In this document: positions 7,602-45,724 of the stretch, one piece after another
How the letters are laid out: each line of letters opens with the position of its first letter
How positions within the stretch are numbered: the stretch's first letter is position 1
Virus record (IMG/VR): IMGVR_UViG_2541047860_000002
Length of the DNA: 64,000 nucleotides
Strand: one strand, 5' to 3'
From: a virus
Lineage: Duplodnaviria; Heunggongvirae; Uroviricota; Caudoviricetes
Notes under the pieces: model-generated
What the model saw: only the letters and a program-made list of their open reading frames with translations
The model's database searches: none
Told to the model about the DNA's origin: nothing
Program-made: the position numbers and the translations under genes

Positions 7602-7620
7602 TGTTAGAAAACTAATTTAT
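7602..7620 (+). promoter_or_regulatory. Operator-like motif TGTTAGAAAACTAATTTAT (copy a)
   Basis: Member of a motif family repeated at least 11 times; lies upstream of the first Rha module. Confidence 0.45.
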
Positions 7621-8190
7621 CAATTCAATTGCCATCTGATACAACGCCATTTCATCGGCATTGTGCCGCATGAAATCTGCTTTTCCGCCTATTTTTCCAT
7701 CAGCATGAACAGGGACCAGCCAGGGATATTGTTCTCGGACCTCGGCTGGCGCTGCGTACTGGTGGTGCCATTTACACAAAGGGAGGACATATTTATGCGC
7801 GTTCTCTGCCGTTCTCCCGAAGATATGGTGCAGGGATACTACTGGGCTATGTTGCCCGTGAATATGGCAGGCAATGCAGGGGAGAGTACCGATAGCGGTC
7901 TGTATCCGGCGTTCATCGGCTGTGAGTGATCTGCCCTTCAGGCCGCGTGACGTGCGTGTTTTTTTGGACGGAGCGGATACAGCTTTCTCTTTTCTCCGCT
8001 GGTCATATTGCTTTGCTTTTTCAATTTTTTTTTGCCGATATTCAGGCGATGCGGCTTTTTCTCTCGCTCGCTGCTGCTGGCGTTGAGCTTGTTGAAGGCG
8101 CTTTGCCCTTTGTTCCTCTCGCCAGGCCGGGTCAGCCAATTTTTGCATGGCTTTTTGTCTCTGTTTCTCCCAGTAGCTCTGTTTCTGCAT
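7612..8190 (-). CDS. ref: Ref-like HNH endonuclease (P1 recombination enhancement function homolog)
   Basis: 192 aa; basic N-terminus; HNH-type motif ...CIACHIHGQHSP...HHIFGRT...PLCKWHH. Confidence 0.8.
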   Translation of the reverse strand: MQKQSYWEKQRQKAMQKLADPAWREEQRAKRLQQAQRQQQRAREKAASPEYRQKKIEKAKQYDQRRKEKAVSAPSKKTRTSRGLKGRSLTADERRIQTAIGTLPCIACHIHGQHSPVVSLHHIFGRTAENAHKYVLPLCKWHHQYAAPAEVREQYPWLVPVHADGKIGGKADFMRHNADEMALYQMAIELIN

Positions 8191-8235
8191 GATGGCTGCC
8201 TCTTACTTTTCAGCGATTTTTCTATGATTGATCAA

Positions 8236-8270
8236 AATTGTTAGATATTCAAAATTGATTTTCTAACACA
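8236..8270. promoter_or_regulatory. Divergent operator pair TTGTTAGA-N16-TCTAACA between ref and the early operon
   Basis: Inverted repeat 8239-8246 / 8263-8269 in the ref upstream region. Confidence 0.5.
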
Positions 8271-8307
8271 AAACATTAATATCATTCCTGATAACTGTTT
8301 GGAGGAC

Positions 8308-8463
8308 ATGATGCTTATAGCTTTAAGTGCGATCCACCAGCCATCTGTGAATGAGATTGGCCTGTTCTATGTGTTGTTTTTCGGGGCGTTGGCGCTACTT
8401 GAGCTTGGTATTGAGCTTTTCGCAGTGCTTATGTTTTGCGTCACGATTTTGGGGAAATTTTGA
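8308..8463 (+). CDS. Small hydrophobic peptide (51 aa), first ORF of the early operon
   Basis: GGAGG then ATG; MMLIALSAI...LFFGALALLELGIELFAVLMF; stop overlaps next start (TGATGG). Confidence 0.3.
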   Translation: MMLIALSAIHQPSVNEIGLFYVLFFGALALLELGIELFAVLMFCVTILGKF

Positions 8464-9086
8464 TGGTGAAACGTGTTTTGAAAATTTACATCGCGGGGCC
8501 GATGACTGGTTATCCAGATTACAACCGTGCGGCGTTTAATGCGAAAGCGAGCGAGTTGATGGCTGAAGGGCATATCGTTCTGAATCCAGCGGTGTTACCT
8601 GGTGGCCTTTGCCAGAGTGAATACATGGATATTTGCCTGGCAATGGTGCGTTCTGCTGATGCGATCTATTTGCTCAATCAATGGGAAGAATCGGTTGGTG
8701 CTCGTGCAGAGCACGCGTTGGCTGAAAAGCTTGGGCTGACTGTAATTTATGAGTCACCAACCAACATTGAATGCCAGGTTGCTACGCATATTTACCGGGA
8801 ACTGGTCAATGCGTTACGTGATGTTGCTATTGAATGTCACGGCACGGATCAGCTTCGCGCTCGCTTAAGCCAAACCCTTTCCAGTTACCTGTCTTTGGCT
8901 GAAGGATACAACCTCCGACAGCGAAGAATGGTCAGATTAATCACGCGGTTATCTCAATCCCTGGCAAATGCTGAACCAACTAATCCGCTACCTAATGACG
9001 CAATGAATTATCTGAAGTCATGCGGCGTTGTTTCTGAAGATGCAGTTCGTTTTGTGGAGTTTATGTCTCAGAGGATGTCGGCGTGA
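8463..9086 (+). CDS. DUF4406-like protein (nucleoside 2-deoxyribosyltransferase-like fold) with a C-terminal YRELVN...GT.QLR module
   Basis: KIYIAGPMTG...N..AF...YLLNQWEESVGARAE motif; C-terminal ~30 aa shared with ORF 14824-15990. Confidence 0.5.
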   Translation: MVKRVLKIYIAGPMTGYPDYNRAAFNAKASELMAEGHIVLNPAVLPGGLCQSEYMDICLAMVRSADAIYLLNQWEESVGARAEHALAEKLGLTVIYESPTNIECQVATHIYRELVNALRDVAIECHGTDQLRARLSQTLSSYLSLAEGYNLRQRRMVRLITRLSQSLANAEPTNPLPNDAMNYLKSCGVVSEDAVRFVEFMSQRMSA

Positions 9087-9400
9087 GCTGGCGGGGATGG
9101 GGAAGGGCAGAAATCATGATACTCCGCCAGTGCGCCGGAACTATGACGGTCGAGAGTATTGGGAAGCTGATCGGTCGTACCGGTGATGCCGTCAGGACTA
9201 AAGCGCGGGAGTTGGGGATCAGCATGATTCTGAAAGGAGACTTTCATCCGTCAGCCAAATACCGGCAGAGCGATATAGAACTGGCACGGCAGCTTCATCA
9301 GTGTGGTGTTCCCCGCCGTGAGATCGCGGAAAAACTCGAAATGCCCCTGGGCATGATTAATCAGTACGTTTATTTCGAAAGGAGAGTGTATGAAGTCTGA
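9083..9400 (+). CDS. Hypothetical protein (possible HTH)
   Basis: 105-aa ORF, overlapping stop/start. Confidence 0.4.
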   Translation: MSWRGWGRAEIMILRQCAGTMTVESIGKLIGRTGDAVRTKARELGISMILKGDFHPSAKYRQSDIELARQLHQCGVPRREIAEKLEMPLGMINQYVYFERRVYEV

Positions 9401-9899
9401 AGGTTTAACGCCCGCACAACTGGCAGAGCGTAACGCTGAGTATGTAACGGAAATTTCCCGACTTGAGCAAGAACGCTCGGCGCTGGCGGCGGAGAATGCG
9501 GGAATAAAGTCTGCAATTCCAGAATCACGGGATATTGAGGATGACAATGACAATATGGATGACGTATCTCTCGCGGAAGATTTCGGGTTCAATCATGCAA
9601 TAGAACTGATGAGGAGACGGATTCCTGAAACTCCGGCCACCGACGCTTTCCTGGCTGAAGTACGTGCGGAGGCACGCAACGAGGGGATTAACTACACCGC
9701 AAGCCGTCTTGCTGCTGCGTTCAATCACGGATTTATCAATAAGTCTTTGCGTGAAGTTTTCGACGTTACACGCATGATTTTGTCAGCGAAAGAAGAGTTG
9801 GCTAATGAACCGCATCCGCTTGATGGCCTGTCCGGTGAATATGCGGAGAAATCCCTAGAAGAATGGGCGGAACAGATTCGCAAAGGAAGCAGCCAGTGA
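9390..9899 (+). CDS. Hypothetical acidic protein
   Basis: 169-aa ORF in co-directional early operon. Confidence 0.4.
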   Translation: MKSEGLTPAQLAERNAEYVTEISRLEQERSALAAENAGIKSAIPESRDIEDDNDNMDDVSLAEDFGFNHAIELMRRRIPETPATDAFLAEVRAEARNEGINYTASRLAAAFNHGFINKSLREVFDVTRMILSAKEELANEPHPLDGLSGEYAEKSLEEWAEQIRKGSSQ

Positions 9900-11411: not shown

Positions 11412-11450
11412 ATTTGTTAGAACATTGATTATAGTTTTCTAACATATTAT
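11412..11450. promoter_or_regulatory. Operator pair TTGTTAGAAC-N14-TTTTCTAACA (copy c)
   Basis: Inverted TGTTAGA/TCTAACA halves inside the early operon, upstream of ORF 11487. Confidence 0.5.
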
Positions 11451-18674: not shown

Positions 18675-19451
18675 TTATTTCACCTCTTCTGCCGCTGTAT
18701 CATTGGACTGTTCTTCTTTGGCCCGTTCTGCAATCGCCGCACGGCATTTCGCCCTGGCTGTAGCGATTGCTTCTGCTCGCACATCGTCTGGAATCGTTGA
18801 CGTGATATACATATCCAGTTCTTCGGCACGGAATACTGTTTGGTCCAGATATTCGCGTAGCATCCAAGTAAATTCGAAATCACACGCGATAATCTCTGCG
18901 CTACCTTCTGCACCATTTGGGAAATGAATAAATGCCTGTTTAGCCAAACCGATAACACGACATGCGGTTGCCAAAACAGCGACAACCAGGTTTACATTTT
19001 CACACGCTACGGGCTGATTAACGCCGGAGATTACTCCATTTAACTGTCGGTTATATGGAAGGTAGTTTGAGATGCGTTCTACGCGCCATGTGCCAGTCAG
19101 GCTGCCATTCTTAAAGATAATTGGTGTAACGGATAGCCCAAGCTCGCGTATAAGTCGTTGCGCTATAGCAGGATCATTAAACATGTCTAATGCTACACAT
19201 TCGAAAGACTGTGCAAGGGTAAACAGTTCTTCCAGAGAGTAGTCTTTGCCCCTGGCGGTGATGTAACGATGAACGCCGCTTTCTGCATCGCTCCATATAG
19301 CTACGCCATGCTCTTCATTCAGCTCTTCATTAAAGCCGAGATACGTCATGATAGTACGTTCAATCGTGTCAAACGGCAGTGACATGTCGGCGTTAACAGC
19401 CACCAGCAGGCCATTACGCAAGCGGTATTGAATTGCTTTAGTATTTTCCAC
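18675..19451 (-). CDS. Hypothetical protein
   Basis: 258-aa ORF. Confidence 0.45.
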   Translation of the reverse strand: MENTKAIQYRLRNGLLVAVNADMSLPFDTIERTIMTYLGFNEELNEEHGVAIWSDAESGVHRYITARGKDYSLEELFTLAQSFECVALDMFNDPAIAQRLIRELGLSVTPIIFKNGSLTGTWRVERISNYLPYNRQLNGVISGVNQPVACENVNLVVAVLATACRVIGLAKQAFIHFPNGAEGSAEIIACDFEFTWMLREYLDQTVFRAEELDMYITSTIPDDVRAEAIATARAKCRAAIAERAKEEQSNDTAAEEVK

Positions 19452-19457
19452 GTTAAA

Positions 19458-21515: not shown

Positions 21516-21536
21516 GTGTTAGAAATTTAATTTATG
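21516..21536 (+). promoter_or_regulatory. Operator-like motif TGTGTTAGAAATTTAATTTAT (copy d)
   Basis: Overlaps cre stop; precedes downstream minus-strand genes. Confidence 0.4.
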
Positions 21537-22560
21537 AATCCATCAGGCGGCTATTAGCCCCCACAGACACGCCGCCACGGCGCAGATACCGCATAAGTGT
21601 TTCCGGTTTCTTCCAGGTTCCTTCCTGCATGATCTCCACCATAGACACCTGCTTTTCTGCCATATCGATAGCAGCCCCGACACGAGCACTATGCCCGGTC
21701 CACGTCCGGTATCTCCCCTTGTTTGGAGTGGCATCTCTTTTATTCAGCAACACCCAGGCGTCACTAAATATTTTCTCCATTGCAGGTGCAGTAAGGGGCG
21801 TTGTCGTAATCCTGGCCTTATTGCTACGGTGTATCGGCGGGAACAGCACCGCGTCAGGATGTTCACGAAGCCCGGAAACATCCAGCCAGTCATTCAGCAC
21901 AGCAGTAGTGCGACGGGAAAGCACCTTATCAAGCCCGGCGGCGGTCGTTATTGTCTTCGTGTGTGAAATATGTAGCGTGACAGTGTCACCTGTTTGGTCC
22001 AGATCTCCTACACGAATACGCGAGATTTCAGACATGCGCATCAGCGTATTGTATGCAACAAAGAGAAAAGCCCGGTTGCGCAGGTCCACCAGCCGTTCTG
22101 ACCTGGACAACAGGACGTCGAGCAGTTTCAGATCGTCCCACCGCAGCGGTATAGCCTGGCCTGTTCGTTCGCCTTTTTCCGTTGCCGCTTCACGCCGGAT
22201 GCGCCGCATAGCCAGAGAAACACTTTTATCATCCGAAAGTGGCGGAAGGCCACAATGCGAAAGCAGCATGTTCAGCATGGCGTAGTGCTTATCAATGGTG
22301 GTCGAAGCCAGATCAGCATCATGCAGCTGAAGAAAATACTCGCGGGCCATCTCTGGAGAGATCGGGAACCAGGCGAGCTGGCGAGCGTGACACCATCTCG
22401 CCCAGGAGTGAAACACTAACCGGAGATCGCGCAAAGTATTAGGCGCGTAAGCCCCCTGGTCATTCATGAACCGCATAAAGTTTTCTGCGGCCTCCTGGTA
22501 CTCTTTGCCAATGTTGCGCAGAAAACCACTGGAGCTGCCAGAGATAATTAATTCACTCAT
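21532..22560 (-). CDS. cre: Cre-like tyrosine recombinase (diverged from P1 Cre)
   Basis: Colinear similarity to P1 Cre incl. WFP...P..V..Y, VSLVMRRIR-like, NTL.R..EI.RIRV.D, SGHSARVGAA.DMA, E.MQ.G.W motifs. Confidence 0.9.
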   Translation of the reverse strand: MSELIISGSSSGFLRNIGKEYQEAAENFMRFMNDQGAYAPNTLRDLRLVFHSWARWCHARQLAWFPISPEMAREYFLQLHDADLASTTIDKHYAMLNMLLSHCGLPPLSDDKSVSLAMRRIRREAATEKGERTGQAIPLRWDDLKLLDVLLSRSERLVDLRNRAFLFVAYNTLMRMSEISRIRVGDLDQTGDTVTLHISHTKTITTAAGLDKVLSRRTTAVLNDWLDVSGLREHPDAVLFPPIHRSNKARITTTPLTAPAMEKIFSDAWVLLNKRDATPNKGRYRTWTGHSARVGAAIDMAEKQVSMVEIMQEGTWKKPETLMRYLRRGGVSVGANSRLMDS

Positions 22561-22745: not shown

Positions 22746-22927
22746 AAAGTGCCAATTTTTTTTAATCCATCATAGATTGATGATGACCAGTAACACGTTG
22801 CCTTCATGGTCTTTAATTTGCGAAGTGTGGTTTCTACGGTTGGTTTTCTAAAATTGATGACAAAAAATCACAGTTCGATCCTTTACTCACTCTGTTATTC
22901 GACATAAATTTGTCATAGTAATTTTAT

Positions 22928-22945
22928 GTTAGAAAACTAAATCGA
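22928..22945 (+). promoter_or_regulatory. Operator-like motif TGTTAGAAAACTAAATCG (copy e); degenerate inverted copy at 22843-22863
   Basis: 10 bp upstream of ORF 22955. Confidence 0.45.
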
Positions 22946-22954
22946 GTAGGAATA

Positions 22955-23992
22955 ATGAGTAAGAAGTCGATCGAGAAAGAGTACAAACGGTTCCTGCAAA
23001 CCGCTGAACGGTGGAAAGAGCTGGTGGTCGCAAACTCTGTTTTCCATGATACCAGTTATGCTGGCGAGGAATTCCGCCATGTTGCATTAACGCATGACCA
23101 AAACATATTAGAAGAAGCTGAAAAATGTCTTGCTGAATGGAAAGCCTTCGTTGACATGTGCCGCGATTCCGACGGCAAAGCGTCGAACATTGTTGAGTCT
23201 GTATATTCTCCGATCCCATTCATCATTGAGGACACCAATCAAAGCACGCATGTTGTTGTGCAAAGCGCTACAACAACACGTACATTTACACGTGAACAAT
23301 TGCTCAAAAAATACGACAAAATCATAAAGAAAAGCCTGAAAAATAGGGTTTTTTCTCAAATCGTAGGCGCTCTTGAAGAAGAACAGCGCTTCTTTGAAGC
23401 TGAGCCTGAAGGCGAGATCTACCGGGCGCGTAAAGAGGCATATACAGATGTTGTGCTGACAACAAATATCGAAGGCAGCAATGCCCTTTCTCGCTTTAGA
23501 GTTGGCGCACATGGCGCATTGGTTTTCGCAAGACTACCGAAGACAACGATCCCCGTTGTCAATAATGTTGGTGAACGCCGGAGCATTACAATTTATTCTG
23601 GCGTCGAATCGGTACCTTGCAGCCTTCTCGGCGATTTTAACTTATATCGTGTTCGTGACCTGGAAAAACACCAGCCAAGCTACGTTGCGAAGTCGTACAT
23701 CTTAAGGAACATCGATATTCGCAATGAAAGCCTTAAGCAGAAATCCGCTAAGATGCTGGAGGATGCCGATCCGGCTATTCGCCATATCATTGAGCGTAAG
23801 ATACGTACATCACGTGAAGCAATGGCAAGGCTGGATAAAATGGATCTGGAATTGTTAGACGTAATGATGGCCTCTGGAGACGACCTGACCGGCATTAAAC
23901 TGAATGAAGCTCGTAAAAAATACGGCAAAGCAATCGAAGAACGTTACGGATACACATTCCCCCAAACGCAGTACGCCGCGAAGCTCTGGTAA
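22955..23992 (+). CDS. Hypothetical protein between lox and pacB (c1/coi region equivalent)
   Basis: 345-aa ORF preceded by operator copy e; function not recognisable from sequence. Confidence 0.45.
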   Translation: MSKKSIEKEYKRFLQTAERWKELVVANSVFHDTSYAGEEFRHVALTHDQNILEEAEKCLAEWKAFVDMCRDSDGKASNIVESVYSPIPFIIEDTNQSTHVVVQSATTTRTFTREQLLKKYDKIIKKSLKNRVFSQIVGALEEEQRFFEAEPEGEIYRARKEAYTDVVLTTNIEGSNALSRFRVGAHGALVFARLPKTTIPVVNNVGERRSITIYSGVESVPCSLLGDFNLYRVRDLEKHQPSYVAKSYILRNIDIRNESLKQKSAKMLEDADPAIRHIIERKIRTSREAMARLDKMDLELLDVMMASGDDLTGIKLNEARKKYGKAIEERYGYTFPQTQYAAKLW

Positions 23993-24019: not shown

Positions 24020-25528
24020 TTATATATCCAGATCAGGCATTTCGATATCCGCCAGAACCTGATCTCGGAAAGTTGCCATTTCGGCACCAATATCTTCATT
24101 AGCAGGCACATAGTCCACCAGCATAGTGAAGCAGTAGGTATCCCATCGGTCAGGCGATTTGATGTTTAGCTTTTGCCGCATGTGCTCTTTGCGCATCATC
24201 GCCATTTTCCCTTCTTCATTCAGTAAAAAGGGGATTTTTGACGCTTGCTCTGCCGTTTTAGGGTCACTGTCTATCCGCATACGCCCTGACTTTATGGCAT
24301 CACGCGCCATAATATTTGCGTAGGCACGCTGATTAACAAATCGCTCCCTGTCTTTGTTCGCAAACATGGGTTTTCCCCACCGAATACGTACCGGGTTCGC
24401 ACCACGACGCACCAACTGCGCACACGTATCAGAACCAAAACCATCAGCATCAACCGCGATTGTTATATTCGGGTATTTTTCCGGCGTACATTCGTTATAT
24501 ATGAAGTCAGCAAAGGCCAATGGGTCCATAGTGCCAGGCATCTCCATTACCTTAAAGTTAACAACGCGACGCTTATCCCTGTGACCAGATACCTTGCAGA
24601 TGTTGAGGACCGACTTATCTCGCCCATTACCAACGTCAGCCGTTGCCACCCATCCCCAGTTTTTCTCCAACAACACCTTGCGGCGAGCAGCGCGATCGCA
24701 TTCATCACGACCAAGCAAATAGCCGTTAATTTCTCGTGGGAACTGACCAAGCACCTTGACCATGTACTCAATAGAATCGCGCCCGCCATATTCCAGAAGC
24801 TTCTGCTTGATGAATTGTGGTGTGACGAACGGTGATTCTTCCGAGTTAAGAACAATTGCTGTCCAGATCCCTTTCGGGTTGTCTGGGGTTTTTGCTTGAG
24901 AATGGTGCGAATCGTAGAAATAACCACTTGGCCTTGTTGGCTGGGATAGCATCAACATCCGGTTATCTTCTTCAGTAAGAGCACCGGTCATTACGCCGAT
25001 CGCCTTATCAGATATACCAGATGCTTCGTCCAGAATTAGAAGCAAATGTGCCGCGTGTTCCCCCGCCAGCGCTTCTTCGTTGCCGAGTCGATAACCTTTG
25101 CAGAGAACTTCCCAAATCCCCTTACGGGAGCGCTCATAAAACATGGTGTCAGAGAGGACAAAATAGGTCTGCAACCACCCATGACGCTTAACTGCATTCG
25201 CCCAATACTGTTTAACGTATTTGAATACGCCTGTTTTTACCTGGCCTATCTTGTTAGCAACAATGATGACACGGGCATCGGGGAACAGGATCATAAAAAT
25301 CAACAGCAACATCGCGGTAAGGGACGACTTCCCCGTTCCGTGTCCGGACGTGACGGTCGTCCTACTCCCCGTTTCCTGCACTGACTGAATGATCTGCTGC
25401 TGCTGGTGGGAGGGGAACATCCCAAAAATATCGACAACAGCCTGGGTAAAGTTGTAGCGGTATTTGATTACCATATCGCGCCAGCGTGGATCGCTGGTGA
25501 CGCATTTAATCTTGCGCCCGCCAGCCAT
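24020..25528 (-). CDS. pacB: Terminase large subunit (PacB-like)
   Basis: Walker A SGHGTGKSS, Walker B LLILDEASG; size and position after pacA. Confidence 0.8.
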   Translation of the reverse strand: MAGGRKIKCVTSDPRWRDMVIKYRYNFTQAVVDIFGMFPSHQQQQIIQSVQETGSRTTVTSGHGTGKSSLTAMLLLIFMILFPDARVIIVANKIGQVKTGVFKYVKQYWANAVKRHGWLQTYFVLSDTMFYERSRKGIWEVLCKGYRLGNEEALAGEHAAHLLLILDEASGISDKAIGVMTGALTEEDNRMLMLSQPTRPSGYFYDSHHSQAKTPDNPKGIWTAIVLNSEESPFVTPQFIKQKLLEYGGRDSIEYMVKVLGQFPREINGYLLGRDECDRAARRKVLLEKNWGWVATADVGNGRDKSVLNICKVSGHRDKRRVVNFKVMEMPGTMDPLAFADFIYNECTPEKYPNITIAVDADGFGSDTCAQLVRRGANPVRIRWGKPMFANKDRERFVNQRAYANIMARDAIKSGRMRIDSDPKTAEQASKIPFLLNEEGKMAMMRKEHMRQKLNIKSPDRWDTYCFTMLVDYVPANEDIGAEMATFRDQVLADIEMPDLDI

Positions 25529-27382: not shown

Positions 27383-27389
27383 CCTAACG

Positions 27390-28887: not shown

Positions 28888-28896
28888 AGATTACTG

Positions 28897-29028
28897 TTAA
28901 TTCCGCTTACGCTTTTTGCCAGGACCGCGTAAGGCTTTTGCTGCTTGCTCGACCCCATATGCAACCACCAGCAGAAATAAAAATGTCCACCAAGGGTTCT
29001 TGTCGGCAAACGTCCAAAATTCCATCAT
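28897..29028 (-). CDS. Small hydrophobic peptide (43 aa) between tRNA and plp
   Basis: MMEFWTFADKNPWWTFLFLLVVAYG... then basic tail. Confidence 0.2.
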   Translation of the reverse strand: MMEFWTFADKNPWWTFLFLLVVAYGVEQAAKALRGPGKKRKRN

Positions 29029-29041
29029 GTTATCTATTTGG

Positions 29042-29869
29042 TTATTTCACCGGAACAAACGGAACAGCGGTATTACTGGTCATATACTGCGGTAGCGTTC
29101 CGTTCCATTTGTTGATCGCTTCCAACTCCATAACGCCGGGGTTCTGGCGCAGAGCCTCACCGCGTAAACGAATGGCATCAGCTTCAGCCTGGGCTTTTGT
29201 GCGAATGGCATCGGCCTGTCCAGCAGCTTCTGCGCGCAGCATGTTGGCTTCTGCTTCGCGTTGCTTGACTTCCTGCTCGCGTTGCAGAGTTTTCTGGTTC
29301 GCCGTGACTTTGGCATTAATGCTGTCGATAACGGTTGGCGGGTACTCCGGCTTGCCCACATATGAGAGGCTCATTACCTGAATACCGATGGGCGTCATTT
29401 CTTCCTGAATGTCTTTAAGGGCTGCATCAAGCAATTCAGATTTGCCACCGTCGATAAATTTGTCGGTGGTCATTTTGCTGGCTAACCGGTTCAGAGCATC
29501 TGCAACCTTCTGGCGTAGATCGGTATCAGTAATATCATCTACACCTTTGCGATAGGTCTGAAATACCGTTGTGACTTTTGCTGGATCAACCTTGTAGGCT
29601 ACGCCGATGTGGTAACCAATGGTTGTTCCGTCGCTCATCTGGAAGCTGAACGGCTCATCGTATGTCTTCATTTGCTTAAAGGTCGGGAAGATATAAACTT
29701 CAGTATTCAAGCCTGTCCAGTAGCGACCAACGCCAACTACTTCACCGATACCTTTATCATCCCCCAGCTTATTTACTTTGATCCCTACGTTACCTGGCTC
29801 TACCCGATCGCATCCGGTCAGACATAAAGAACCAAAAATAATCGCTGCACTAATCAACGTTTTTTTCAT
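29042..29869 (-). CDS. plp: SPFH/band-7 domain lipoprotein (P1 Plp-like)
   Basis: Lipobox ...SLCLTGC; prohibitin-like core and coiled-coil tail; located inside tRNA cluster as in P1. Confidence 0.75.
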   Translation of the reverse strand: MKKTLISAAIIFGSLCLTGCDRVEPGNVGIKVNKLGDDKGIGEVVGVGRYWTGLNTEVYIFPTFKQMKTYDEPFSFQMSDGTTIGYHIGVAYKVDPAKVTTVFQTYRKGVDDITDTDLRQKVADALNRLASKMTTDKFIDGGKSELLDAALKDIQEEMTPIGIQVMSLSYVGKPEYPPTVIDSINAKVTANQKTLQREQEVKQREAEANMLRAEAAGQADAIRTKAQAEADAIRLRGEALRQNPGVMELEAINKWNGTLPQYMTSNTAVPFVPVK

Positions 29870-30086
29870 TAATCAATTTCCTGGTTTTTTCACGAAAAAA
29901 GACTACTGCAAAAGCCGGGTAAATGAGCGCGAGAAGGACTCCCAACAATACAAGTATTGTGCTGTCAGATGAGATCATATTTGGCAAAAGCCAAACATAC
30001 AGAACCAGTGACACAATCAAACAGAGGACGACATAAATATATAACCGCACCCATAGCGTTCGACATTTGTTCGGATTGTTCTGCAT
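29850..30086 (-). CDS. Small membrane protein upstream of plp
   Basis: 78-aa ORF with two hydrophobic helices. Confidence 0.45.
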   Translation of the reverse strand: MQNNPNKCRTLWVRLYIYVVLCLIVSLVLYVWLLPNMISSDSTILVLLGVLLALIYPAFAVVFFREKTRKLINEKNVD

Positions 30087-30349
30087 CCTCTCACTCCATT
30101 ATTTACCGAATAAAAAAGCTGCGGTGCCTGGTGCCTCCAGGTGACGTTAACCAGTTAACAATTAACGCCGGGATGTTTGACTTAACCACTAAGGAGGATT
30201 GTTTTAACTGTTCCGCGTGCGCTTAGCCGCATTCACCGCAATGGTAAGAGCACTTGGCTGGCTGGGCGGCGATGACGCCTGTACGCATTTGGTGATCCGG
30301 TTCTGCTTCCGGCATTCGCTTAATTAGCCAAATACTCTTAACGTTGCAC

Positions 30350-30436
30350 TGGCGGAGAGTAATGGAATCGAACCATCATCGCTTGCGCAATGGGACGGTT
30401 TTCAAGACCGCTTGAGCACCATGCTCCCTACTCTCC
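30350..30436 (-). tRNA. tRNA-Ser-like (UGA anticodon, long variable arm, atypical short D-loop)
   Basis: Perfect 7-bp acceptor stem, anticodon loop CTTGAAA, T-arm GATGG-TTCGATT-CCATT, CCA encoded. Confidence 0.55.
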
Positions 30437-30533
30437 AGTGATTGTGATGGTCGGTGCTGAACTCCGACACAGGGTTGTAGCAAGCCCCGCAAAGCGCGCA
30501 CTACTGTAGTTGCGGCACATCAGCCTGTGCATT

Positions 30534-30633
30534 CACCACAATGTTGAGAACACTGGTTGTCACGCTGCAACGCAACATTTATTCATAGATTGGGATATGA
30601 CCCCGTTACGCCAGTGTTCTCAACGTTGTGGTG
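30534..30633. repeat. 23-bp inverted repeat (CACCACAATGTTGAGAACACTGG / rc) with 54-nt loop; related copies at ~30233 and ~30765
   Basis: 22/23 match between 30534-30556 and rc of 30611-30633. Confidence 0.6.
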
Positions 30634-30838
30634 CCGGTTACGGTTCCGGCCAGGCCTCTTCCTCAACGGGGTGTTCTCCATACGGACTACCGTTTATTGG
30701 TCGTTCCTGCGGTTTATGTTGTGAAGCCAGATGCTTATCTTCTGGTTGCTTCAAAGAGCTGCACTTCATCACAACGGTAAGAGCACTCGATGCATTTAAG
30801 CCAAGCCCCATAAGGGAGAATGCCCTTACCTGTTGTGT

Positions 30839-30914
30839 TGGTGCCGGTTAACGGACTCGAACCGCTGACATCCTGCTTACAAGGCAGGCGCTCTACCAAC
30901 TGAGCTAAACCGGC
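30839..30914 (-). tRNA. tRNA-Thr (UGU)
   Basis: GCCGGTTTAGCTCAGTTGGTAGAGC...CTTGTAA...GGTTCGAGTCC...CCA. Confidence 0.85.
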
Positions 30915-30918
30915 AATT

Positions 30919-31005
30919 TGGTGGGGAGTGATGGAGTCGAACCACCCGAGTCGCAATGACAGTAGATTTACAGTCTACCCCGCTACCCCTACGGACTAAC
31001 TCCCC
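30919..31005 (-). tRNA. tRNA-Tyr (GUA), type II
   Basis: GGGGAGT acceptor, anticodon loop CTGTAAA, long variable arm, GGTTCGACTCC T-loop, CCA. Confidence 0.85.
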
Positions 31006-31010
31006 TAAAT

Positions 31011-31087
31011 TGGCGATGGTGGGTGGATTCGAACCACCGACCGACAGCTTAGAAGGCTGCTGCTCTATCCTACTGAGCTACACCATC
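31011..31087 (-). tRNA. tRNA-Arg (UCU)
   Basis: GATGGTG acceptor, GCTCAGTAGGATAGAGC D-arm, anticodon loop CTTCTAA, GGTTCGAATCC, CCA. Confidence 0.8.
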
Positions 31088-31669: not shown

Positions 31670-32303
31670 ATGCGGCACTCTCTCCGCCCGTCACCGCTCT
31701 GTCTCGGTTGTCGCGTTTGCCACGCCAGCCGTAACGAGGTTTAAAGTCTTTACACGTTTCCATCACTCGACTGCCGTCTGTGGCTGTTCGTTGCAGCGGG
31801 GGTGCCTCCCCCTGGGGATATCCCCGGCCTTACCCCATTCTTTCAAGACACAATGCAAGGCCACATCCGCATAGGTGCATTACCGCAACATTAAGGAGAC
31901 TCAGGGCAAAAGGTAACCGCCACAAAAATCCCTATGCCTCCTTAATGTTGAAGATGTGCATTGATGATTAGATGCAGCATGTACCGTTACTCTCTGCCGG
32001 ACCATCATCAATGAACACCTTAAAAAGACCTTCCGTGGCTCAACATGTATTGTCGTTTACTCCGCAAAGTGCTCTCTCTGAAACCACTTTCCGCACTAAA
32101 CCTGCTGAACTTTGGCCTGCACGGTGCCAAAGCGTGCTCTTGCATTACCATCCTTTTCTAACACTTTAATTTGTTAAATGCTGGTGGGCGAACAATAACC
32201 AATAAGTGACTATCAAGCCCAGCAAGCGAAACGTGGGTACTGCCCACCAGCAAGGAAAATTCTATGTTAAGTTATCTCCACAATCAATACATTCGAATTG
32301 TGA

Positions 32304-32327
32304 TTTTAGATTTCTAACACATTATTT
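32304..32327 (-). promoter_or_regulatory. Operator-like motif (rc TGTGTTAGAAATCTAAAA, copy f) ahead of the noncoding leader and tRNA operon
   Basis: Overlaps stop of ORF 32322-33530; upstream (minus strand) of the tRNA cluster. Confidence 0.4.
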
Positions 32328-33530
32328 CCCATAAAGATCTTCTACACCCCCATTCTTCTTATCCCATTCGTTCGCCCATACCCGGCAAGCGTCAATGATT
32401 TCCTGACGACGATCTCCTTGCATGAACGGGATGCTTTCATGGAAACAGCTTGGAATGCAGGCCACACTGAATACAGTATCAAACTCCGTCTGCTTGATTG
32501 CCTCCAGCGTCTCCGGACGCATTTTTAATTCATCGATTGGCGCATCCTTAGAGTCCATAATCCGGCGATATAAGCGCGGAAAATCCGTCTCCAGGTACGC
32601 CATAATTTTATCTGCGAGACATTCGTCTATGTCGGTATTCCAGTCCTTTTCGAAGCCCGGCAGGCGATAGTAAAGCGGCGTTCCCCATACCGATGGGATC
32701 ACATCCATCGTTAACAGGCGATTGGTTCTGATTTGTTGATGGTAATTAGCCGTCAACAGTGCTTCGCCACGCTGCCCTGTTTCCGCAACCAGGCCGTGCG
32801 GATACTCATGGATGTAGGCAATGGCATCCCTTCCATCATACATGAGTGGAAATGTCTCTGGTCTTTGTCCCATGCCACAAGCACGGTTCAGATCGTGACC
32901 AAGCTGTGAGCACTCTCGCTTTAATGTTTCGATAATGCTCTGCGCTGTAGCCAACTTTTTACGCAGTGTGACGCCTTCGCCTTGATAATCAATGCATTGC
33001 TGATTGAGCTTGGTTAAACGCTCTTTTAGTTCCCTGCGCTCTCTTTTCAGCGTGCGGTTATCCTTCTCCGCAACATCCAGCCGCTTTGTCAGGCTTGGCG
33101 GATAGTCTTTTTTGTAACGGTTCAAATCGGCTTCGGCAGATTTACGCAGTGTATTTGCCTGTTCAAGACGCGCTTCCAGATTGCCGATCTCATTACGCAT
33201 ATTCGCGGCAAATTGATTAACTGCATCACCTAGGCTTTCAACTGTCGCTGATACGCCTGTGACTTGTGAAAAACGGATCAAGCCATCATTAACGGCTTGT
33301 TGGTATTCCTCAAACTGATCCACCAGCTTATTGTAATCAACTGCCCCATCATCAAGCAGCTTGTTGATTTCCGCCACCAGGTTATCTGTAGTGGCAATGA
33401 CACTCTCGTGCAGTCGCTTTGACAGGTCATCACCCGGATTCCGTTTCTGTATAAGAGCGATTTGTGTGCGCAGCGTTTCAATTGCTGTCGAGATAATTTC
33501 CAGATTAGAAGTATCAGTGTGTTGACTCAT
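32322..33530 (-). CDS. Hypothetical protein (probable ATG start 33530)
   Basis: ~400-aa ORF preceded by operator copy g. Confidence 0.5.
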   Translation of the reverse strand: MSQHTDTSNLEIISTAIETLRTQIALIQKRNPGDDLSKRLHESVIATTDNLVAEINKLLDDGAVDYNKLVDQFEEYQQAVNDGLIRFSQVTGVSATVESLGDAVNQFAANMRNEIGNLEARLEQANTLRKSAEADLNRYKKDYPPSLTKRLDVAEKDNRTLKRERRELKERLTKLNQQCIDYQGEGVTLRKKLATAQSIIETLKRECSQLGHDLNRACGMGQRPETFPLMYDGRDAIAYIHEYPHGLVAETGQRGEALLTANYHQQIRTNRLLTMDVIPSVWGTPLYYRLPGFEKDWNTDIDECLADKIMAYLETDFPRLYRRIMDSKDAPIDELKMRPETLEAIKQTEFDTVFSVACIPSCFHESIPFMQGDRRQEIIDACRVWANEWDKKNGGVEDLYGK

Positions 33531-33552
33531 TGCTGTTCCCGTCACTTTGTTA

Positions 33553-33577
33553 AATTAGTTTTCTAACATATTTTATT
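33553..33577 (-). promoter_or_regulatory. Operator-like motif (rc ATGTTAGAAAACTAATTT, copy g)
   Basis: Immediately upstream of ORF 32322-33530. Confidence 0.45.
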
Positions 33578-34154: not shown

Positions 34155-34617
34155 TTAATCAAGACAAACATACTCCGTGATAGCTTTTATGGCTTCAGCG
34201 GCACTGCGCGCCTCAAAGCAGTAGTAACCGGCTTCAGTGAGGCGGGTCATCCAGACGAGTTGTTCGGGAGTCAGGCGATTTCTCCCATGTTTCATCTCAA
34301 TGCGCATTCCGTGGTATCCCCCCACAAGCAAGGTCTATAGAAAGATCGGGATATCCCTTCTTTTGGCCCTCTGCCACCATTTTTATTGCCGTCCTTATGC
34401 CTCGCAGGCCACCGTTTGGAGTGGCGTGAGTATGCTCATACACATAACGCATATTGCGATACAACCAGTCCAGGACGCGAACCTGCTCGTAATGCTCATG
34501 GTTCCTTTTGATTAGATCTGGGTTTTTCTCCAGTTCTCTAAGAGCTGCGGCATGTGGGGATGTTTCAGAATATTCACTGCGACGCCTTCTCTTTCGCGCT
34601 ATTTTTCTAACACACAT
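34155..34617 (-). pseudogene. VRR-NUC domain nuclease gene interrupted by a frameshift at a C6 tract (34318-34323)
   Basis: N-part ...GYPDLSIDLACGG then, in the adjacent frame, YHGMRIEMKHGRNRLTPEQLVW... completes the PD..(I)E(M)K nuclease core. Confidence 0.6.
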
Positions 34618-38500: not shown

Positions 38501-41500
38501 TTACCACCAGCTACTTTTGGCAAGGCATCAGCAATAGCTTTTACCTGGTCTGCAAGCTCAACGGGGAACTGGAATGTAATCGCACTGGCATACAGATCCG
38601 GGTCTATAGCAACCTTGTCCATGTCACGGATGATGGAGAAGATGAAATCATCCGGTTTGTCGTTAGTGATATGCCCGTTTTCATCGACTGTCAGCTCATC
38701 ATTGCGACTTAACTCCTGAGCACGCTTACGAAGTTCTTCATAAGCAGACTCCTGCTCCCCTGTCATCGGGATCTGCAAGGTGTTCTCGATGATGTCGGGA
38801 ATTTTAACCGTCGCTCCGACATCTGCGGCAGTCTTCAGAGTGGTCCAACGATGGAAAATACCACGCAGGCCATCAAGGTTCTGGAAGCCCACCAGCCCCT
38901 GCTTCTCTTCCACTTCCCCGGAAATTTTCTGGACCTGAACTGTGGCTGTTTTGCCAAACACACGAACGAAATCATCAGGCGTAATGATGCCCATGCGCAT
39001 CCACTCTTCCTGCGGAATGACAGTAGACAGCATGTTGAAGGCATCAATCGGACTGTTCACCAGCGGAGTTGCCGTCAGCATGACTACACCACGTCCGTTG
39101 TTGCGTTTCATCATGTACGCAGCTTTTACAGCCATGTCGCGGGCCATCTTGGATACTGCCGGGTTAGGCAAATATGCCAGTTGTCCCGCTTCACGCCCGG
39201 CATTAAAGGAGTTGCGGTAGTTATGCCCCTCGTCGGCAATCACGCTATCGAAGTTCATATCCTCAAAGTACGGGATATTCTGCTTCTTCGTTGTACCGGT
39301 ATTCGCGGCCTGATCCTTAATCTTGTTCTTCTTCTGTGCATCACGGTGTTTGCCAGACGCCAGGTCAAGACGCCCCATTTCCACAGCATTAAAGACAGCT
39401 TGCTGTGAGTTCTCCTCGATGGTTTTTTCTCGTAGCGGGATAGACGCGAATTGTTCTTTTGTCATGATGACCGTTCGCCAATTTGACGACGGGATCATGT
39501 TCATGCGCTGAACGATAACGGCGCTGGCGGACTCTTTCACAACATTTCTGGTAAGAGGCTGCCCGTTACTGTCGAGGCGTGGTTCGCCATTTTCATCAAG
39601 CACCGGCGCGGTCAGAATATTTCCGCTGTCATCACGAACTTCATCCAAACCGATAAACATCATATTGGCGAAGGCATCAGCACTGTAGAAACTCTGTGCC
39701 TCGTGATACCAGTTCTGATAAACCGCCTTCGGAACAACAATACACGTGCGTTTAGTGCGACCTGTTTCGAAGTTATACGCCTCAAGCGCAAGCGCGGTCG
39801 TGGTTTTACCCAGCCCGGTACCAAATCCCATGATGCCGCGCCCATCTTCTGACAAGCGACGAACTTCTTCATTTTGATAAGTCAGAGGAATGCGCTTTCC
39901 ACTAATCCCTTCCAGGCCAAGCGGTGCGTTAGAGTGCGTGAACGGAATGAAGCCATTGAATGCGTCGTTATAGTCACGGGCTATCTGATCCGCCTGCGGG
40001 TGGGTGCGTAACCAGTCGTTAAAGCTAACTTCCAGTTGAGCAATTTTATCCAGGTACTCGTTAGCGTTCTGCCCACGCGGTTTAACACCGTTCAGGTAGT
40101 TTTCTAACTGGTTCAGGAAGCCGTCTTTATTGTTGGCCTTCTTGAACTCATTCCCGTTTTTGCCGTTTACGGTTCGTAGCTGATAGCCGGTAAATACCCC
40201 GTCCTTACCTTCGTAATCGTCCGGAGATACCAGAATGCCATCGACGACCTTCAGATCAGGTTCAGTGTACTTAAACTCGTCATAGCCCTGCTCTGCCAGG
40301 AACTCTTTTATCAAGCGGCGATCCAGCCAGCGGGCATTCAGATTAACGGTGACTTTATTTAGTGGCGTGAAAATGCGTTTCTCTTCGATTTTCGCCAACT
40401 GACGCTCAAAGTTCGCTTTCTGCTCACCTGTTGACGCATCACGCCAGCCCACCAGCAATGCTGTTTTGGTTGCAATATCGCCGCTGGTGGCGCGGTCCAT
40501 CGGCAGCAGGCAGCCATACCCATCAATAGCGATATCATCAAATTTCGCTAGGTATTCAAGGGCCGCGTCGTCGTCCTCTGGCAATTCACCAGCAAACGCC
40601 TCACGAAAGTCGCCCAGCGTTATAGGATTAAGGGCTACATCACTGAAAAGATGTGCTATCACTTGTTCAGGACGTGTAAAGTCAATACCGGCAGCACCAT
40701 CCGTTACATCAAGTCGCCCTGCCAGAAGGTCAGAAGTGGAACCATCCTGTTTCACATTGCCAGTGAACGTCATCCAGTTTTTAGCGCCAGCTTCAGCAAG
40801 CCCATTCAGCTTAATCGCGTGCGGTGGTCCATACTTCGCAACTTCTGCTGCCGCCAGGCGGGATGCATCTGCCAGTTTGTCATCAACGTTCACCCCCAGG
40901 TTACGCAAATCAAGTGCCTTGTTGATCAACTGCCCTATCAGCGCACCGCGCATAACGCGCTCTCTGTCTTTTTCTCGCTGCTTGCCAGCAAAGCGAATCA
41001 TTGCTGCCACTTCATCACTGACAACCGATGGATAGTCGGACGCGATCGCCGATATCTGGTCCCATGACAAAGCCAGAATCCCGTTTGTTGACTGGAACGC
41101 GATCTGCAGATCGCCAAACGTCGAAACACCATATCGACTTACATCAAGCGCGGAGGATTTGGTTGTCGTGTCCTTAACCCATTTCAGGCCATCAAACTCA
41201 TGCCAGATACCGCCTACAAGGCGTTTATCGCCCACTTTCGCGCCCTGCCATGCCTGAGTAGTTACGCCGAGCAAATCCCAATTGATGCGACTATCAAAGC
41301 GACGAGATAGCGCGGTTTTCATCGACTCATTGGATACACGGCCGTCTTTTTTCACCACTAGGGTATTGCGGAAGCTGGTACGTTCCATGTCGCCGTAAAC
41401 AAACCGCTTCCCTTCGGTTGTAAACCATTTTCCTTTGAGGAAGGTATCCCAAAGGACGTTTGCCGATTTGAGCGTGGCATCATCCGTGTCGGGGATCATC

Positions 41501-44154: not shown

Positions 44155-44485
44155 AGTTACGGCCTCACTAACAGGTTTAACAACCTGCTACCCGCTGTCA
44201 AACAGGTGGCAGGACGTGACAGGGTTGACAGACTGGCGTTAGTGAAACCAGCAGGCCGAAGCCTCCCCATCACGCCCCACCATAATTCGGGCGTAACGCG
44301 GTTTACGGACACAAAAATACCGCAATATCGGAAATCTGCGGTTGTCCGCACTAACATTCAGGCTGTCAAACCTGGTCGCAGAATTTGCTACGACGGCATG
44401 AATATAAGCCTGAAAACATGGAAGATCAACTAAAAAATTTCAGCAATGGATGACTTCAGTCGATGATGCAGATCATACATTCCGA

Positions 44486-44520
44486 TTTAGAAACAGCAAA
44501 TTAATTTTCTAACACAAATC
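44486..44520. promoter_or_regulatory. Operator pair TTTAGAAA-N11-TTTTCTAACACA (copy i) upstream of Rha module 2
   Basis: Inverted TTAGAAA/TTTCTAA halves between the repL-like gene and the Rha module. Confidence 0.45.
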
Positions 44521-44568
44521 ATCGAGCGAGCATTTTCCGATCATTGGGATGCTTTGTAGACACACAGG

Positions 44569-45531
44569 TCATCCCCTAAATCCCGCAGGGATTGACCAAT
44601 CCTCCCGGTCAAATTCAGACCGATAGCCACGTTGTTTCATCAGGTCAAAGGCTTCACCAATGGTTACACACCCCTGGGAGCCAGAATAATCCATTGAGAA
44701 ATCCAGGGCACTGGATTGTTTAGGCTTATTCACTGCGGTAGCGGCACTACGTATCCATGCAAATTTTTTTGCCAGCTTTTCAGCGGTACGATACAGAGCC
44801 TGCCGTTTTGCGTGCCCCTCGTCTGAACGACGCTTTGCAGCTCTCGCTTTTGCCGCCGCCAGGCAGTGGTTGGTATGTTCTTCCCTGATTACTGTTTTTT
44901 TATCCAGTCCCCCATTATCCGCTTGAGTACTATCTGCTGGTGAAGCCTTTGGCTGAACCGCGCATGATCTTTCTCTTCTTTTGGCTATAGAGTGACTCTT
45001 ATTTTCTATTGGCTGTTCATTTTGAACATGGGGGGACTTGTTCAATTTGAACAGGGGGTTCCCAGTTTCAAAAAAATAACGTACCTTTGAAATCAATTGC
45101 TTAACCAGCTTTGTGGCGTTGGCAAATTTGATGCCCTGCTTACCCCCTATCTCCATTGCTACATGAATGAAGTGGAGAAATTGTGTCGTAAACCGATATA
45201 CGTTACACACCTGGGCATTGTTATTCGCTACCTGATGTTGCTTAACAAGCATTCCGCACTTCGTCGCTTCAGCAAATGCCCGGCGCACAGTAGAAATGCT
45301 GCGTCCTGTAATCTCGGACATATCAGCATATGAGCGACGGATCATGTATTCATCGGTAGACCCTGCCAGGTTGGCGAACTCGGCAATAATGGCGCTATGT
45401 GAAGGGGAAAGAAGACCGCTATGACGAGCAAAAAAACTCAACTGATGACCTTTGATTTTTTTGTGGTATTCAGTGTTGTTTTTATACTCAGAAGTGTTGA
45501 AAGTTACTGAAACTGAATTTAAAATACTCAC
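44569..45531 (-). CDS. HTH DNA-binding protein, RepL-like replication initiator or repressor candidate
   Basis: N-terminal helix-turn-helix-like ...SEITGRSISTVRRAFAEATKCGMLV; operator copy j upstream. Confidence 0.35.
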   Translation of the reverse strand: MSILNSVSVTFNTSEYKNNTEYHKKIKGHQLSFFARHSGLLSPSHSAIIAEFANLAGSTDEYMIRRSYADMSEITGRSISTVRRAFAEATKCGMLVKQHQVANNNAQVCNVYRFTTQFLHFIHVAMEIGGKQGIKFANATKLVKQLISKVRYFFETGNPLFKLNKSPHVQNEQPIENKSHSIAKRRERSCAVQPKASPADSTQADNGGLDKKTVIREEHTNHCLAAAKARAAKRRSDEGHAKRQALYRTAEKLAKKFAWIRSAATAVNKPKQSSALDFSMDYSGSQGCVTIGEAFDLMKQRGYRSEFDREDWSIPAGFRG

Positions 45532-45593
45532 CAGATAGTTCCGTGAAAAAATCTATCTACCGTATAAATCTATGGCAGTGGATTTATACACCC

Positions 45594-45626
45594 AAAAAGC
45601 CGCTTCTCAGCGGCTTTTGCTTTTTT
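45594..45626. terminator. Bidirectional rho-independent terminator (GCCGCT-tctc-AGCGGC flanked by A5 and T-rich runs)
   Basis: Direct reading. Confidence 0.55.
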
Positions 45627-45704
45627 GGCAGTCGCTACCGGAGCAGTGACCGCGATCCTACTCGATCCCATCCACCAGGATCAACAGTGTATATAAATAC
45701 ACTA

Positions 45705-45724
45705 TGTTAGAAATTTAACTTAAC
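45705..45724 (+). promoter_or_regulatory. Operator-like motif TGTTAGAAATTTAACTTAAC (copy j)
   Basis: Between head genes and the repL-like gene. Confidence 0.45.

Follow-up and report, generated by a model that had tools for sequence, protein, structure and literature searches.

Dispersed asymmetric motifs of a D6-like plasmid prophage as probable operators of its C1 repressor

The 64,000 nucleotides analysed here, referred to throughout as the window (IMG/VR record IMGVR_UViG_2541047860_000002), represent a phage D6-like plasmid prophage of the P1 family, and the subject of this account is a 17-base motif, TGTTAGAAAAYTAAWTT, that is dispersed through the window, together with the prophage repressor gene c1. 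Roughly 70% of the replicon falls within the window. A 17-kb probe from it aligns with Escherichia phage D6 over 79% of its length at 96.5% identity, and some 39 E. coli and Salmonella plasmids, ~92 kb in size, match at 99%; the D6 records used for comparison were MF356679 and AY753669. The gene order around the repressor is pacA-pacB (24020-26892, minus strand), c1 (22955-23992, plus strand), rox and dre (21532-22560, minus strand), where the Dre recombinase is identified from the D6 records and a near-identical plasmid, and rox lies between dre and c1. The lpa gene follows pacB and pacA on the minus strand, with the Lpa homologue encoded at 26907-27275. The c1 gene is thus found between pacB and rox/dre here and between pacB and lox/cre in P1.

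The product of c1 is a D6-type C1 prophage repressor of 345 amino acids, the protein that would bind the motif. Its identity both to the C1 of D6 and to proteins that bear the annotation 'phage repressor protein' is 99-100%, and AY753669 gives the D6 product as 'C1; similar to the C1 repressor of phage P1'. Comparison of the window C1 with P1 C1 by BLASTP returns 21% identity over 240 residues (E 3e-8), and the two proteins match the same PHROG, phrog_1678, the window protein with an E value of 4e-170 and the 283-residue P1 C1 with one of 3e-140. Homologues of the window C1 carry the Pfam family PF27008, Phage_P7_repressor_C1. An exhaustive profile search yielded 83 C1 cluster representatives, nearly all aligning over residues 5-245, and a second, word-indexed protein search with alignment added just one more homologue. 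An earlier reading of the DNA made from its letters and open reading frames (ORFs), called here the sequence-only reading, had put forward the ORF at 22955-23992 as one candidate repressor for the motif; it had chosen the right kind of protein and had missed that this is a c1 homologue, as given by the AY753669 annotation, phrog_1678 and PF27008. When plasmids were searched with C1 by tblastn, 149 records were found to hold a relative of c1, in groups of roughly 99%, 89%, 80% and 68-70% identity, with 18 of the 149 below 60% and mostly at 24-30%. The relatives used for comparison of the DNA are distinguished by their C1 identity, namely L007 (89%), L008, a prophage remnant in plasmid pK91 (68%), and the metagenomic L011 (51%) and L012 (44%).

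The motif TGTTAGAAAAYTAAWTT is present as three exact copies in the window (7602+, 33552- and 44498-, the sign giving the strand). With up to three mismatches there are 11 copies (7602+, 8252-, 11415+, 11428-, 21517+, 22927+, 27360+, 32303-, 33552-, 44498- and 45705+) where 0.84 +/- 0.93 would be expected, and not one of 100 dinucleotide shuffles gave 11. The excess extends to shorter words, with the 8-mer left core TGTTAGAA found 12 times against 1.96 +/- 1.4 expected, and a 10-mer core, allowing one mismatch, 18 times against 4.8 in shuffles that preserve local composition over 200 bp. The strong loci are concentrated in ORF-free DNA, which makes up 6.5-15% of the window and holds 9-10 of the 10 (binomial p <= 1.5e-7), and a de novo k-mer search of this DNA returns TGTTAGAAAA as the top 9-10-mer. 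This approach can be regarded as validated because the identical procedure, applied to P1, recovers the known C1 operator. The search was limited to ORF-free DNA since a whole-sequence k-mer search is swamped by Chi sites. Chi (GCTGGTGG) is in its own right the most over-represented 8-mer of the window, with 36 copies (24 on the minus and 12 on the plus strand) against 2.1 expected, and is equally prominent in Leclercia relatives, Pantoea relatives and P1. The motif had been noticed in the sequence-only reading, and all of the copies listed there are present, 1-9 nt from where it placed them; the inverted pairs that it saw near 8239 and 11416 are real (8239/8252 and 11415/11428), the density is indeed above that of dinucleotide-shuffled sequence, and its placing of the copies in intergenic gaps at the 5' ends of units agrees with the ORF-free count of the strong loci.

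The motif is markedly asymmetric, the left 10 bp holding 1.0-1.7 bits per position and the right 7 bp 0.3-1.2, and two further copies, 32147- and 34596-, carry the left core TGTTAGAAAA only. Four loci have a second, inverted copy at an exact offset of 13 bp, such that the two 17-mers span 30 bp in all; the inverted partner is a strong copy in the pairs 8239/8252 and 11415/11428, and a weak one in the pairs 27360/27373 and 44498/44485. A position weight matrix (PWM) built from the 11 copies was overfitted, and gained just 8239+ and a weak copy at 3828-. The single strong sites are all on the plus strand from 7.6 to 27.4 kb, all on the minus strand from 32.1 to 44.5 kb and on the plus strand again at 45.7 kb, a pattern that does not follow the direction of transcription and for which no explanation was found.

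As intergenic DNA and the motif are both AT-rich, it might be supposed that the copies are a functionless by-product of intergenic composition, or the relics of a short repeat. The enrichment, however, persists in the shuffles that retain local composition, the core is conserved at orthologous positions despite highly diverged flanks, and P1 is without the motif, and an origin of this kind is strongly disfavoured, to the point of being scarcely credible. What is supported is operator-like behaviour of the motif, with dispersed sites found where early and regulatory transcription units have their 5' ends.

The C1 repressor of P1 binds 22 dispersed asymmetric 17-bp operators with the consensus ATTGCTCTAATAAATTT, through which it controls repL and lpa (PMC8546580). 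The P1 record annotates the C1 operators Oref, Omat, Ossb, Oc4, OrepL, Orlf, Odmt, Obanab (divalent), O26, Oppp, OpmgRa/b, OpmgT and Olpa, and a scan also finds sites upstream of P1 c1. Under the Op naming, the operators of the P1/P7 repressor include Op2, Op21, Op51, Op53, Op68, Op72ab, Op82, Op83, Op86, Op88, Op94 and Op99. With gene homology fixed by tblastn of the P1 proteins, most of the strong motif loci in the window are seen to adjoin homologues of genes that have an annotated C1 operator nearby in P1.

The first of these loci, an exact single operator at 7602-7618 (plus strand), overlaps the ref stop codon and lies upstream of immI-like module 1 (orf86/85, an isrK/a1b1-like leader, C4 RNA, icd and a Rha antirepressor); its P1 counterparts are Omat, which also overlaps the ref stop codon, and Oc4. 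A divalent operator at 8239-8268 follows between the divergent ref (minus strand) and early operon orf88...ppp (plus strand), with the predicted -35 hexamers TTGATT (plus) and TTGAAT (minus) inside it, and corresponds to Oref and Oppp. A further divalent operator at 11415-11444, the counterpart of OpmgT, is situated between ppp and the pdcB-like/pmgT-like operon, with the PdcB and PmgT homologues downstream and a predicted promoter, TTGATT-17-TATTTT, that starts within the operator. The single operator at 21517-21533 (plus strand) overlaps the dre stop codon upstream of the minus-strand orf117-orf116-dut...isaA operon (IsaA homologue, 18726-19457); it is conserved in L007, L008, L011 and L012, and its P1 counterpart is Ossb, which precedes ssb-isaA. 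Upstream of the minus-strand lpa-pacA-pacB unit, the operator at 27360-27389 is composed of the strong copy 27360+ and the weak partner 27373-, is conserved in position in L011 and L012, and has Olpa as its counterpart.

Further along, a tRNA cluster occupies 28812-31087 on the minus strand, and a single operator at 32303-32319 (minus strand) is found just downstream of pmgS and upstream of the leader of the tRNA operon (minus strand). It is followed by the strongest predicted promoter, TTGATT-17-TAGAAT (32287-32259), with tRNAs at 31087-30350 on the minus strand. A core-only copy, TGTTAGAAAAGGATGGT, at 32147-32163 (minus strand), with equivalents at D6 8910- and L007 29414-, lies ~100 bp downstream of this predicted promoter, which is therefore flanked by the two sites; the P1 counterpart is the divalent Oban, which controls the tRNA-tciA-ban operon. 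The exact single operator at 33552-33568 (minus strand) is 7 bp upstream of the pmgS start codon (PmgS homologue, 32346-33500) and matches OpmgRa/b in position, and a second core-only copy, TGTTAGAAAAATAGCGC, at 34596-34612 (minus strand), is upstream of a pmgM-like (VRR-NUC-like) gene (PmgM homologue, 34161-34566), where P1 has O26/Op82 upstream of pmgL-pmgM. The operator at 44485-44514, made up of the strong copy 44498- and the weak partner 44485+, stands upstream of immI-like module 2 (a1b1, C4 RNA, icd and a Roi/Rha antirepressor), like Oc4/Op51 in P1.

The last strong site, a single operator at 45705-45721 (plus strand), sits between the pro stop codon and a repL-like gene and has OrepL/Op53 as its P1 counterpart. 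The repL-like gene (44569-45531, minus strand) encodes a RepL-like lytic replication initiator, in that tblastn with P1 RepL gives 28% identity (E 3e-23), the product matches phrog_2418 and replication-initiator PHROGs, and D6_20 is annotated 'lytic replication protein'. This ORF had been the second candidate repressor of the sequence-only reading, a role that is rejected here; because it is a RepL homologue that lies downstream of a site, it is taken as a probable member of the regulon, a target and not its regulator. In the full D6 genome a further inverted pair precedes the hrdC-dmt operon, outside the window, at the position of Odmt.

The two kinds of operator are mutually exclusive. D6 holds 15 D6-type sites (up to three mismatches) and no P1-type site, P1 holds 17 P1-type sites and one chance D6-type site, and a scan of the window for the P1 consensus ATTGCTCTAATAAATTT gave one match only, at chance level. 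The earlier view that the motif is unlike the P1 C1 operator is thereby borne out. The distinct repressor specificity that was proposed on that basis agrees with the operator sequence, but the regulon is not a separate system, since the ORF at 22955-23992 is a c1 homologue and the regulon is the positional counterpart of the P1 C1 regulon. The system resembles that of the P1/P7 C1 repressors (ImmC) in having a homologous repressor at an equal map position and an asymmetric 17-bp site in more than 10 dispersed copies, with single sites mixed with overlapping inverted (divalent) ones, and with sites by ref, c4-icd-ant, repL, lpa, the tRNA operon, pmg genes, the isaA operon, dmt and c1. It differs from P1 in the operator itself (TGTTAGAAAAYTAAWTT as opposed to ATTGCTCTAATAAATTT, neither of which matches the other when three mismatches are allowed, with at most a TTAG/CTAA core in common), in the divalent offset (13 bp here and 11 bp in P1), in the distance of the nearest operator from the c1 ATG (11 bp here and ~95 bp in P1), in having two c4-icd-antirepressor modules rather than one, and in the length of C1, which at 345 residues has a C-terminal extension. 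Because the operators do not match the P1 consensus, the window appears from sequence to be a heteroimmune member of the ImmC type, with a different specificity. When the PWMs of the two operator types are compared, the best alignment is in reverse complement, with TTAGA on the invariant CTAAT of P1 (score 4.89, against a self-score of 10.4), and the best forward alignment scores 3.90; kinship of the two consensus sequences is therefore suggestive and not settled.

Two of these differences can be described further as observations in themselves. The immI-like modules, each with a C4 antisense RNA, an a1b1/isrK-like target leader, icd and a Rha/Roi-type antirepressor, are two separate units at 6855-7065 (C4 RNA, 6855-6942; isrK, 6987-7065) and 44202-44407 (C4 RNA, 44202-44287; c4-a1b1, 44355-44407), each of them downstream of a motif copy, and P1 has one such module. 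The extension of D6-type C1 is an extra C-terminal helical hairpin of ~100 residues (246-345; 23690-23992) that is absent from the P1-type members of 250-290 residues.

The site closest to the repressor gene is the c1-proximal operator, TGTTAGAAAACTAAATC, at 22927-22943 (plus strand), which ends 11 bp before the c1 ATG and through which c1 would be autoregulated; its P1 counterparts are the operators of the c1 region. It is kept in the relatives whose C1 is 89%, 68%, 51% and 44% identical, and the flanks diverge. The best sigma-70 score in the region belongs to a candidate c1 promoter, TTTACT-17-TAAATT, predicted at 22882-22910 (plus strand), both hexamers of which are invariant, with a diverging spacer, in an alignment of the region upstream of c1 (alignment A1). 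The proximal operator would fall at about +10 to +26 of this candidate promoter, which would fit autoregulation by roadblock. A weak inverted copy, TTTTAGAAAACCAACCG, is located at 22837-22853 (minus strand), ~75 bp upstream of the proximal operator; its core TTTTCTAAA is invariant in alignment A1, with only a degenerate core in the window, and in L011 and L012 a full inverted TTTTCTAACA is found at the corresponding place, ~90-100 bp upstream of the c1-proximal site.

Conservation among the relatives follows the core of the motif. In L007 and L008 the c1-proximal site and the site at the dre stop codon are conserved amid diverged flanking DNA, and L011 and L012 keep TGTTAGAAAA at orthologous places upstream of c1, downstream of the recombinase gene and upstream of lpa, with L011 additionally keeping it on either side of its pmgS-like gene; in L011 and L012 alike, the right half has drifted. 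Relatives from Leclercia and Pantoea, whose C1 is ~30% identical, bear at the orthologous positions CCTTAGAAT..., CCTTAGAATCTA-like or YCTTAGAWTT-like sequences, some of them as palindromic pairs. This change of motif in the clade with ~30% C1 identity agrees with co-variation of repressor and operator.

All in all, the motif very probably serves as operator for the D6-type C1 prophage repressor, the product of the gene at 22955-23992. The basis of this assignment is the enrichment of the motif, its positions and its conservation, the homology and synteny of the repressor, the exclusivity with respect to P1 operators and the P1-like neighbours of the sites. That C1 is the binder, and that its binding represses, is what we infer from sequence comparison. 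P1 C1 binds its operators as a monomer, and by analogy D6-type C1 may do the same. What is described is therefore a D6-type version of the classical P1 C1 repressor with dispersed operators and not a new kind of regulon. No operator is annotated in either D6 GenBank record, and a D6 operator consensus was not found in the searchable literature, which excluded the D6 genome paper (Gilcrease and Casjens 2018); an earlier description of the consensus is possible.

The proposed mechanism can be set out as follows. In the lysogen C1 would occupy about a dozen dispersed sites, each of 17 bp and asymmetric, in which a strong core on the left, TGTTAGAAAA, is followed by a weaker, AT-rich part, YTAAWTT; some of the sites are single and others consist of two overlapping inverted copies that span 30 bp. 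C1 bound there would occlude, or otherwise block, the sigma-70 promoters of ref, of the early orf88-ppp operon, of the pdcB/pmgT-like operon and of the dut-isaA operon, would also block lpa and, via Lpa, all late genes, and would further silence the tRNA operon, pmgS, the pmgM-like gene, repL and hence lytic replication, and both c4-icd-antirepressor modules. The c1 gene would be autoregulated from the site 11 bp before its ATG, perhaps in cooperation with the weak inverted copy ~75 bp upstream. In this way the D6-type system would be a heteroimmune counterpart of the P1 C1/operator (ImmC) system. In the two strong divalent sites the central TTGATT/TTGAAT sequences are the best -35 candidates for the flanking units, and the promoter hexamers of P1 Oban likewise lie inside the operator; by that analogy the -35 candidates fit an occlusion of divergent or tandem promoters.

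The proximity of the motif to promoters also brings to mind a quite different explanation, in which it is a shared promoter element read by RNA polymerase, either an early-promoter core or an UP-like AT-rich element, given that it is AT-rich and that parts of it are readable as weak -35 or -10 hexamers. Against this, the single sites are about half sense and half antisense to the downstream gene, and the motif stands anywhere from -120 to +35 with respect to the best predicted promoters. The bases that it conserves most, TGTTAGAAAA, fit the consensus of neither a -35 nor a -10 hexamer and, if taken as an extended -10, are missing the final T. Inverted pairs at a constant offset of 13 bp are what a protein site typically shows, and they mirror the divalent operators of P1, all of which makes a promoter element very unlikely.

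If the motif is a protein site, it could still be the operator of some other phage or host DNA-binding protein, for which a Rha/Roi antirepressor-family protein, the pmgF-like 'transcriptional regulator', a small 'DNA-binding protein' of the early operon and the RepL-like protein are the candidates. Several putative DNA-binding proteins other than C1 are annotated in the near-identical plasmids, the RepL-like ORF has a sub-threshold match to HTH_36, and the choice of C1 as binder is one of inference, all of which leaves some room for such a protein. Against this, none of the candidates accounts for the site 11 bp upstream of c1, or for the sites that adjoin homologues of P1-operator genes; the pK91 remnant, which includes dre, c1 and the dut operon, still retains both operator copies flanking dre and c1; and the RepL-like protein matches replication-initiator families and is encoded downstream of a site. 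Another binder is on this evidence improbable, and C1 is retained as the likely one.

Several points nonetheless weigh against the assignment to C1 or against details of it. Conservation is poor in the right half of the motif, and two of the copies consist of the core only. The change of motif in the clade with ~30% C1 identity is seen at orthologous positions and is statistically not established, the definitions of the Leclercia and Pantoea motifs being too short for discriminating counts. Other phage DNA-binding proteins also vary among the genomes, and for this reason co-variation alone is not decisive and does not single out C1. A strict promoter consensus scan gave fewer sites than shuffles and was uninformative, and with a softer PWM, which yields candidates only, the best predicted promoter is 50-120 bp away for several sites; away from c1 and the two strong divalent sites the predicted promoters are weak or distant, and the promoter-level mechanism is presented here as a proposal. 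Lxc and Coi, which are partners of C1 in P1, are without a homologue in the window, and details of the switch may differ from P1 on that account. More broadly, tblastn of P1 Lxc, Coi, Ant1, KilA, C8, Ssb and Ban against the 64-kb window (~70% of the replicon) found no homologue, and Lxc has been reported as not detected in a D6-like plasmid (PMC6799933). It is a speculation that the C-terminal helical region of D6-type C1 might replace partners such as Lxc and Coi.

The assignment, if correct, has some practical consequences. E. coli, Salmonella and Shigella commonly harbour D6-like plasmid prophages, some of which carry or adjoin resistance genes; knowledge of the operator and its regulon would tell which genes are silenced in lysogens. 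The operator core would predict immunity groups, in that the core is retained with C1 variants as distant as 44% identity but not in the ~30% clade, and this would provide a natural series for the study of specificity change in a monomeric repressor. The same locus that has supplied the Dre/rox tool would also offer an orthogonal repressor/operator pair to stand alongside it.

An unexpected likeness of the modelled repressor to the replication terminator protein Tus of E. coli, whose fold has two alpha/beta domains linked by long beta-strands set in the DNA groove, has emerged as well. When an AlphaFold2 model of the window C1 (9 sequences, predicted local distance difference test (pLDDT) 78) is compared with the PDB by Foldseek, four Tus-Ter complexes of E. 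coli match significantly (E 9e-7) and nothing else does. For a model of the conserved 245-residue C1 core (22955-23689; pLDDT 82, predicted template modelling (TM) score 0.64), Foldseek against the PDB aligns across the whole of Tus with E values of 6e-9 to 1e-6 and TM scores of 0.44-0.49, the next match having an E value of 0.14. Sequence comparison shows no significant similarity and gives a fainter signal: hhalign of a 63-member C1 alignment against Tus returns E 0.0056 over 110 columns and, with looser settings, E 0.0081 over 196 colinear columns, with a probability of about 5% in each case. In a Pfam scan of the C1 family PF05472 (Ter) matches 2 of the 63 members, with a best E value of 0.012 that is below threshold, and is the most-matched family, tied with two others at 2. 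Local HMMER cross-searches between C1 and Tus stayed at noise level, and an hmmsearch of the C1 family against PDB sequences found no Tus match and no solved structure by sequence. The Tus profile is shallow, since the search for Tus homologues gave only proteins more than 81% identical. On balance the P1/D6-family C1 repressors (PF27008) are moderately likely, judging mainly from the models, to be distant structural homologues of Tus, a relationship for which a literature search found no paper linking C1 and Tus.

The two systems can also be compared at the level of their sites. Tus represses its own gene via TerB, which lies in its promoter (PMC8707476). In the stretches compared, L013:3226-3262 and 22927-22957 of the window, TerB (AATAAGTATGTTGTAACTAAAGT) ends 11 bp before the tus ATG, as the c1-proximal operator ends 11 bp before that of c1, so that both systems share the placing of a site, autoregulatory as shown for Tus and as would be expected for C1. 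Both sites contain ATGTT...CTAAA, arranged in Ter as ATGTT-GTAA-CTAAA with a 4-nt spacer and in the c1-proximal operator as ATGTT-AGAAAA-CTAAA with a 6-nt spacer. Tus acts as a monomer and, if P1 is a guide to the D6-type protein, C1 would likewise be a single protein on a long asymmetric site. Unlike Ter sites, the operators are without the Ter core GTTGTAAC, having only TGTT...AACTAA in common and at a different spacing, and show no conserved G/C at the equivalent of position 6 and no sign of a C(6)-type lock; the function proposed for C1, again unlike that of Tus, is transcriptional repression at many promoters. The orientation of the operators was also considered as evidence of a fork-trap role and is rejected as such, since the sites show no consistent polarity with respect to oriR/oriL in an assignment made by hand, with no statistical test, on D6 coordinates. 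Because the Ter core is absent and the polarity relative to the origins is inconsistent, the operators are not regarded as Ter sites, and a relationship of fold would not make them so.

Were the relationship to Tus correct, a Tus-like clamp would explain how one C1 molecule reads a long asymmetric operator, which would be the first structural rationale for the asymmetric operators of P1, and the D6-type operator (TGTT-AGAA-AACTAA) would, together with Ter (TGTT-GT-AACTAA), represent a single kind of site that has diverged, with the autoregulatory arrangement in common. The C1-operator complexes might then act as polar roadblocks. A recent domestication of a plasmid gene is the probable origin of Tus (PMC6549158), and the relationship would bear on the origin of the Tus/Ter fork trap by making the immunity repressor of a phage-plasmid a candidate source, or sister, of the fork-trap protein.

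There remain a number of minor features. A weak candidate copy of the motif, TGTTATAAAAATAATCA, at 3828-3844 (minus strand), lies between mat (minus strand) and a simB-like gene (plus strand) and is of uncertain status, with a similar copy at the corresponding place in L007 (1783-). A core-like copy, AGTTAGAAAACTACCTG, at 40093-40109 (minus strand), falls within the darB coding sequence and is conserved in L007, its function being uncertain. The P1 late-promoter box (ACAAGTGACT-N5-TANNNT) occurs once in the window, at 2727-2747 (plus strand) between a gp26-like gene and mat, and because of this single occurrence the late-promoter sequence recognised by the D6-type Lpa, whose identity to P1 Lpa is 31%, may be a different one. 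The tRNA set of the window (Met, Ser-UGA, Thr, Tyr and Arg-UCU) is unlike that annotated for D6 (Ser, Thr and Asn), and the region is ~0.5 kb longer than in D6. Finally, the pK91 remnant (L008, 14000-21900) is a D6-like prophage remnant embedded in an IncFIB resistance plasmid, the conjugative resistance plasmid pK91 of Salmonella Typhi, in which phd/doc, the dut operon, dre, c1 (68% identical) and a truncated pacB are present and which adjoins IS26, qnrS1, blaTEM-1, sul2 and tetA.

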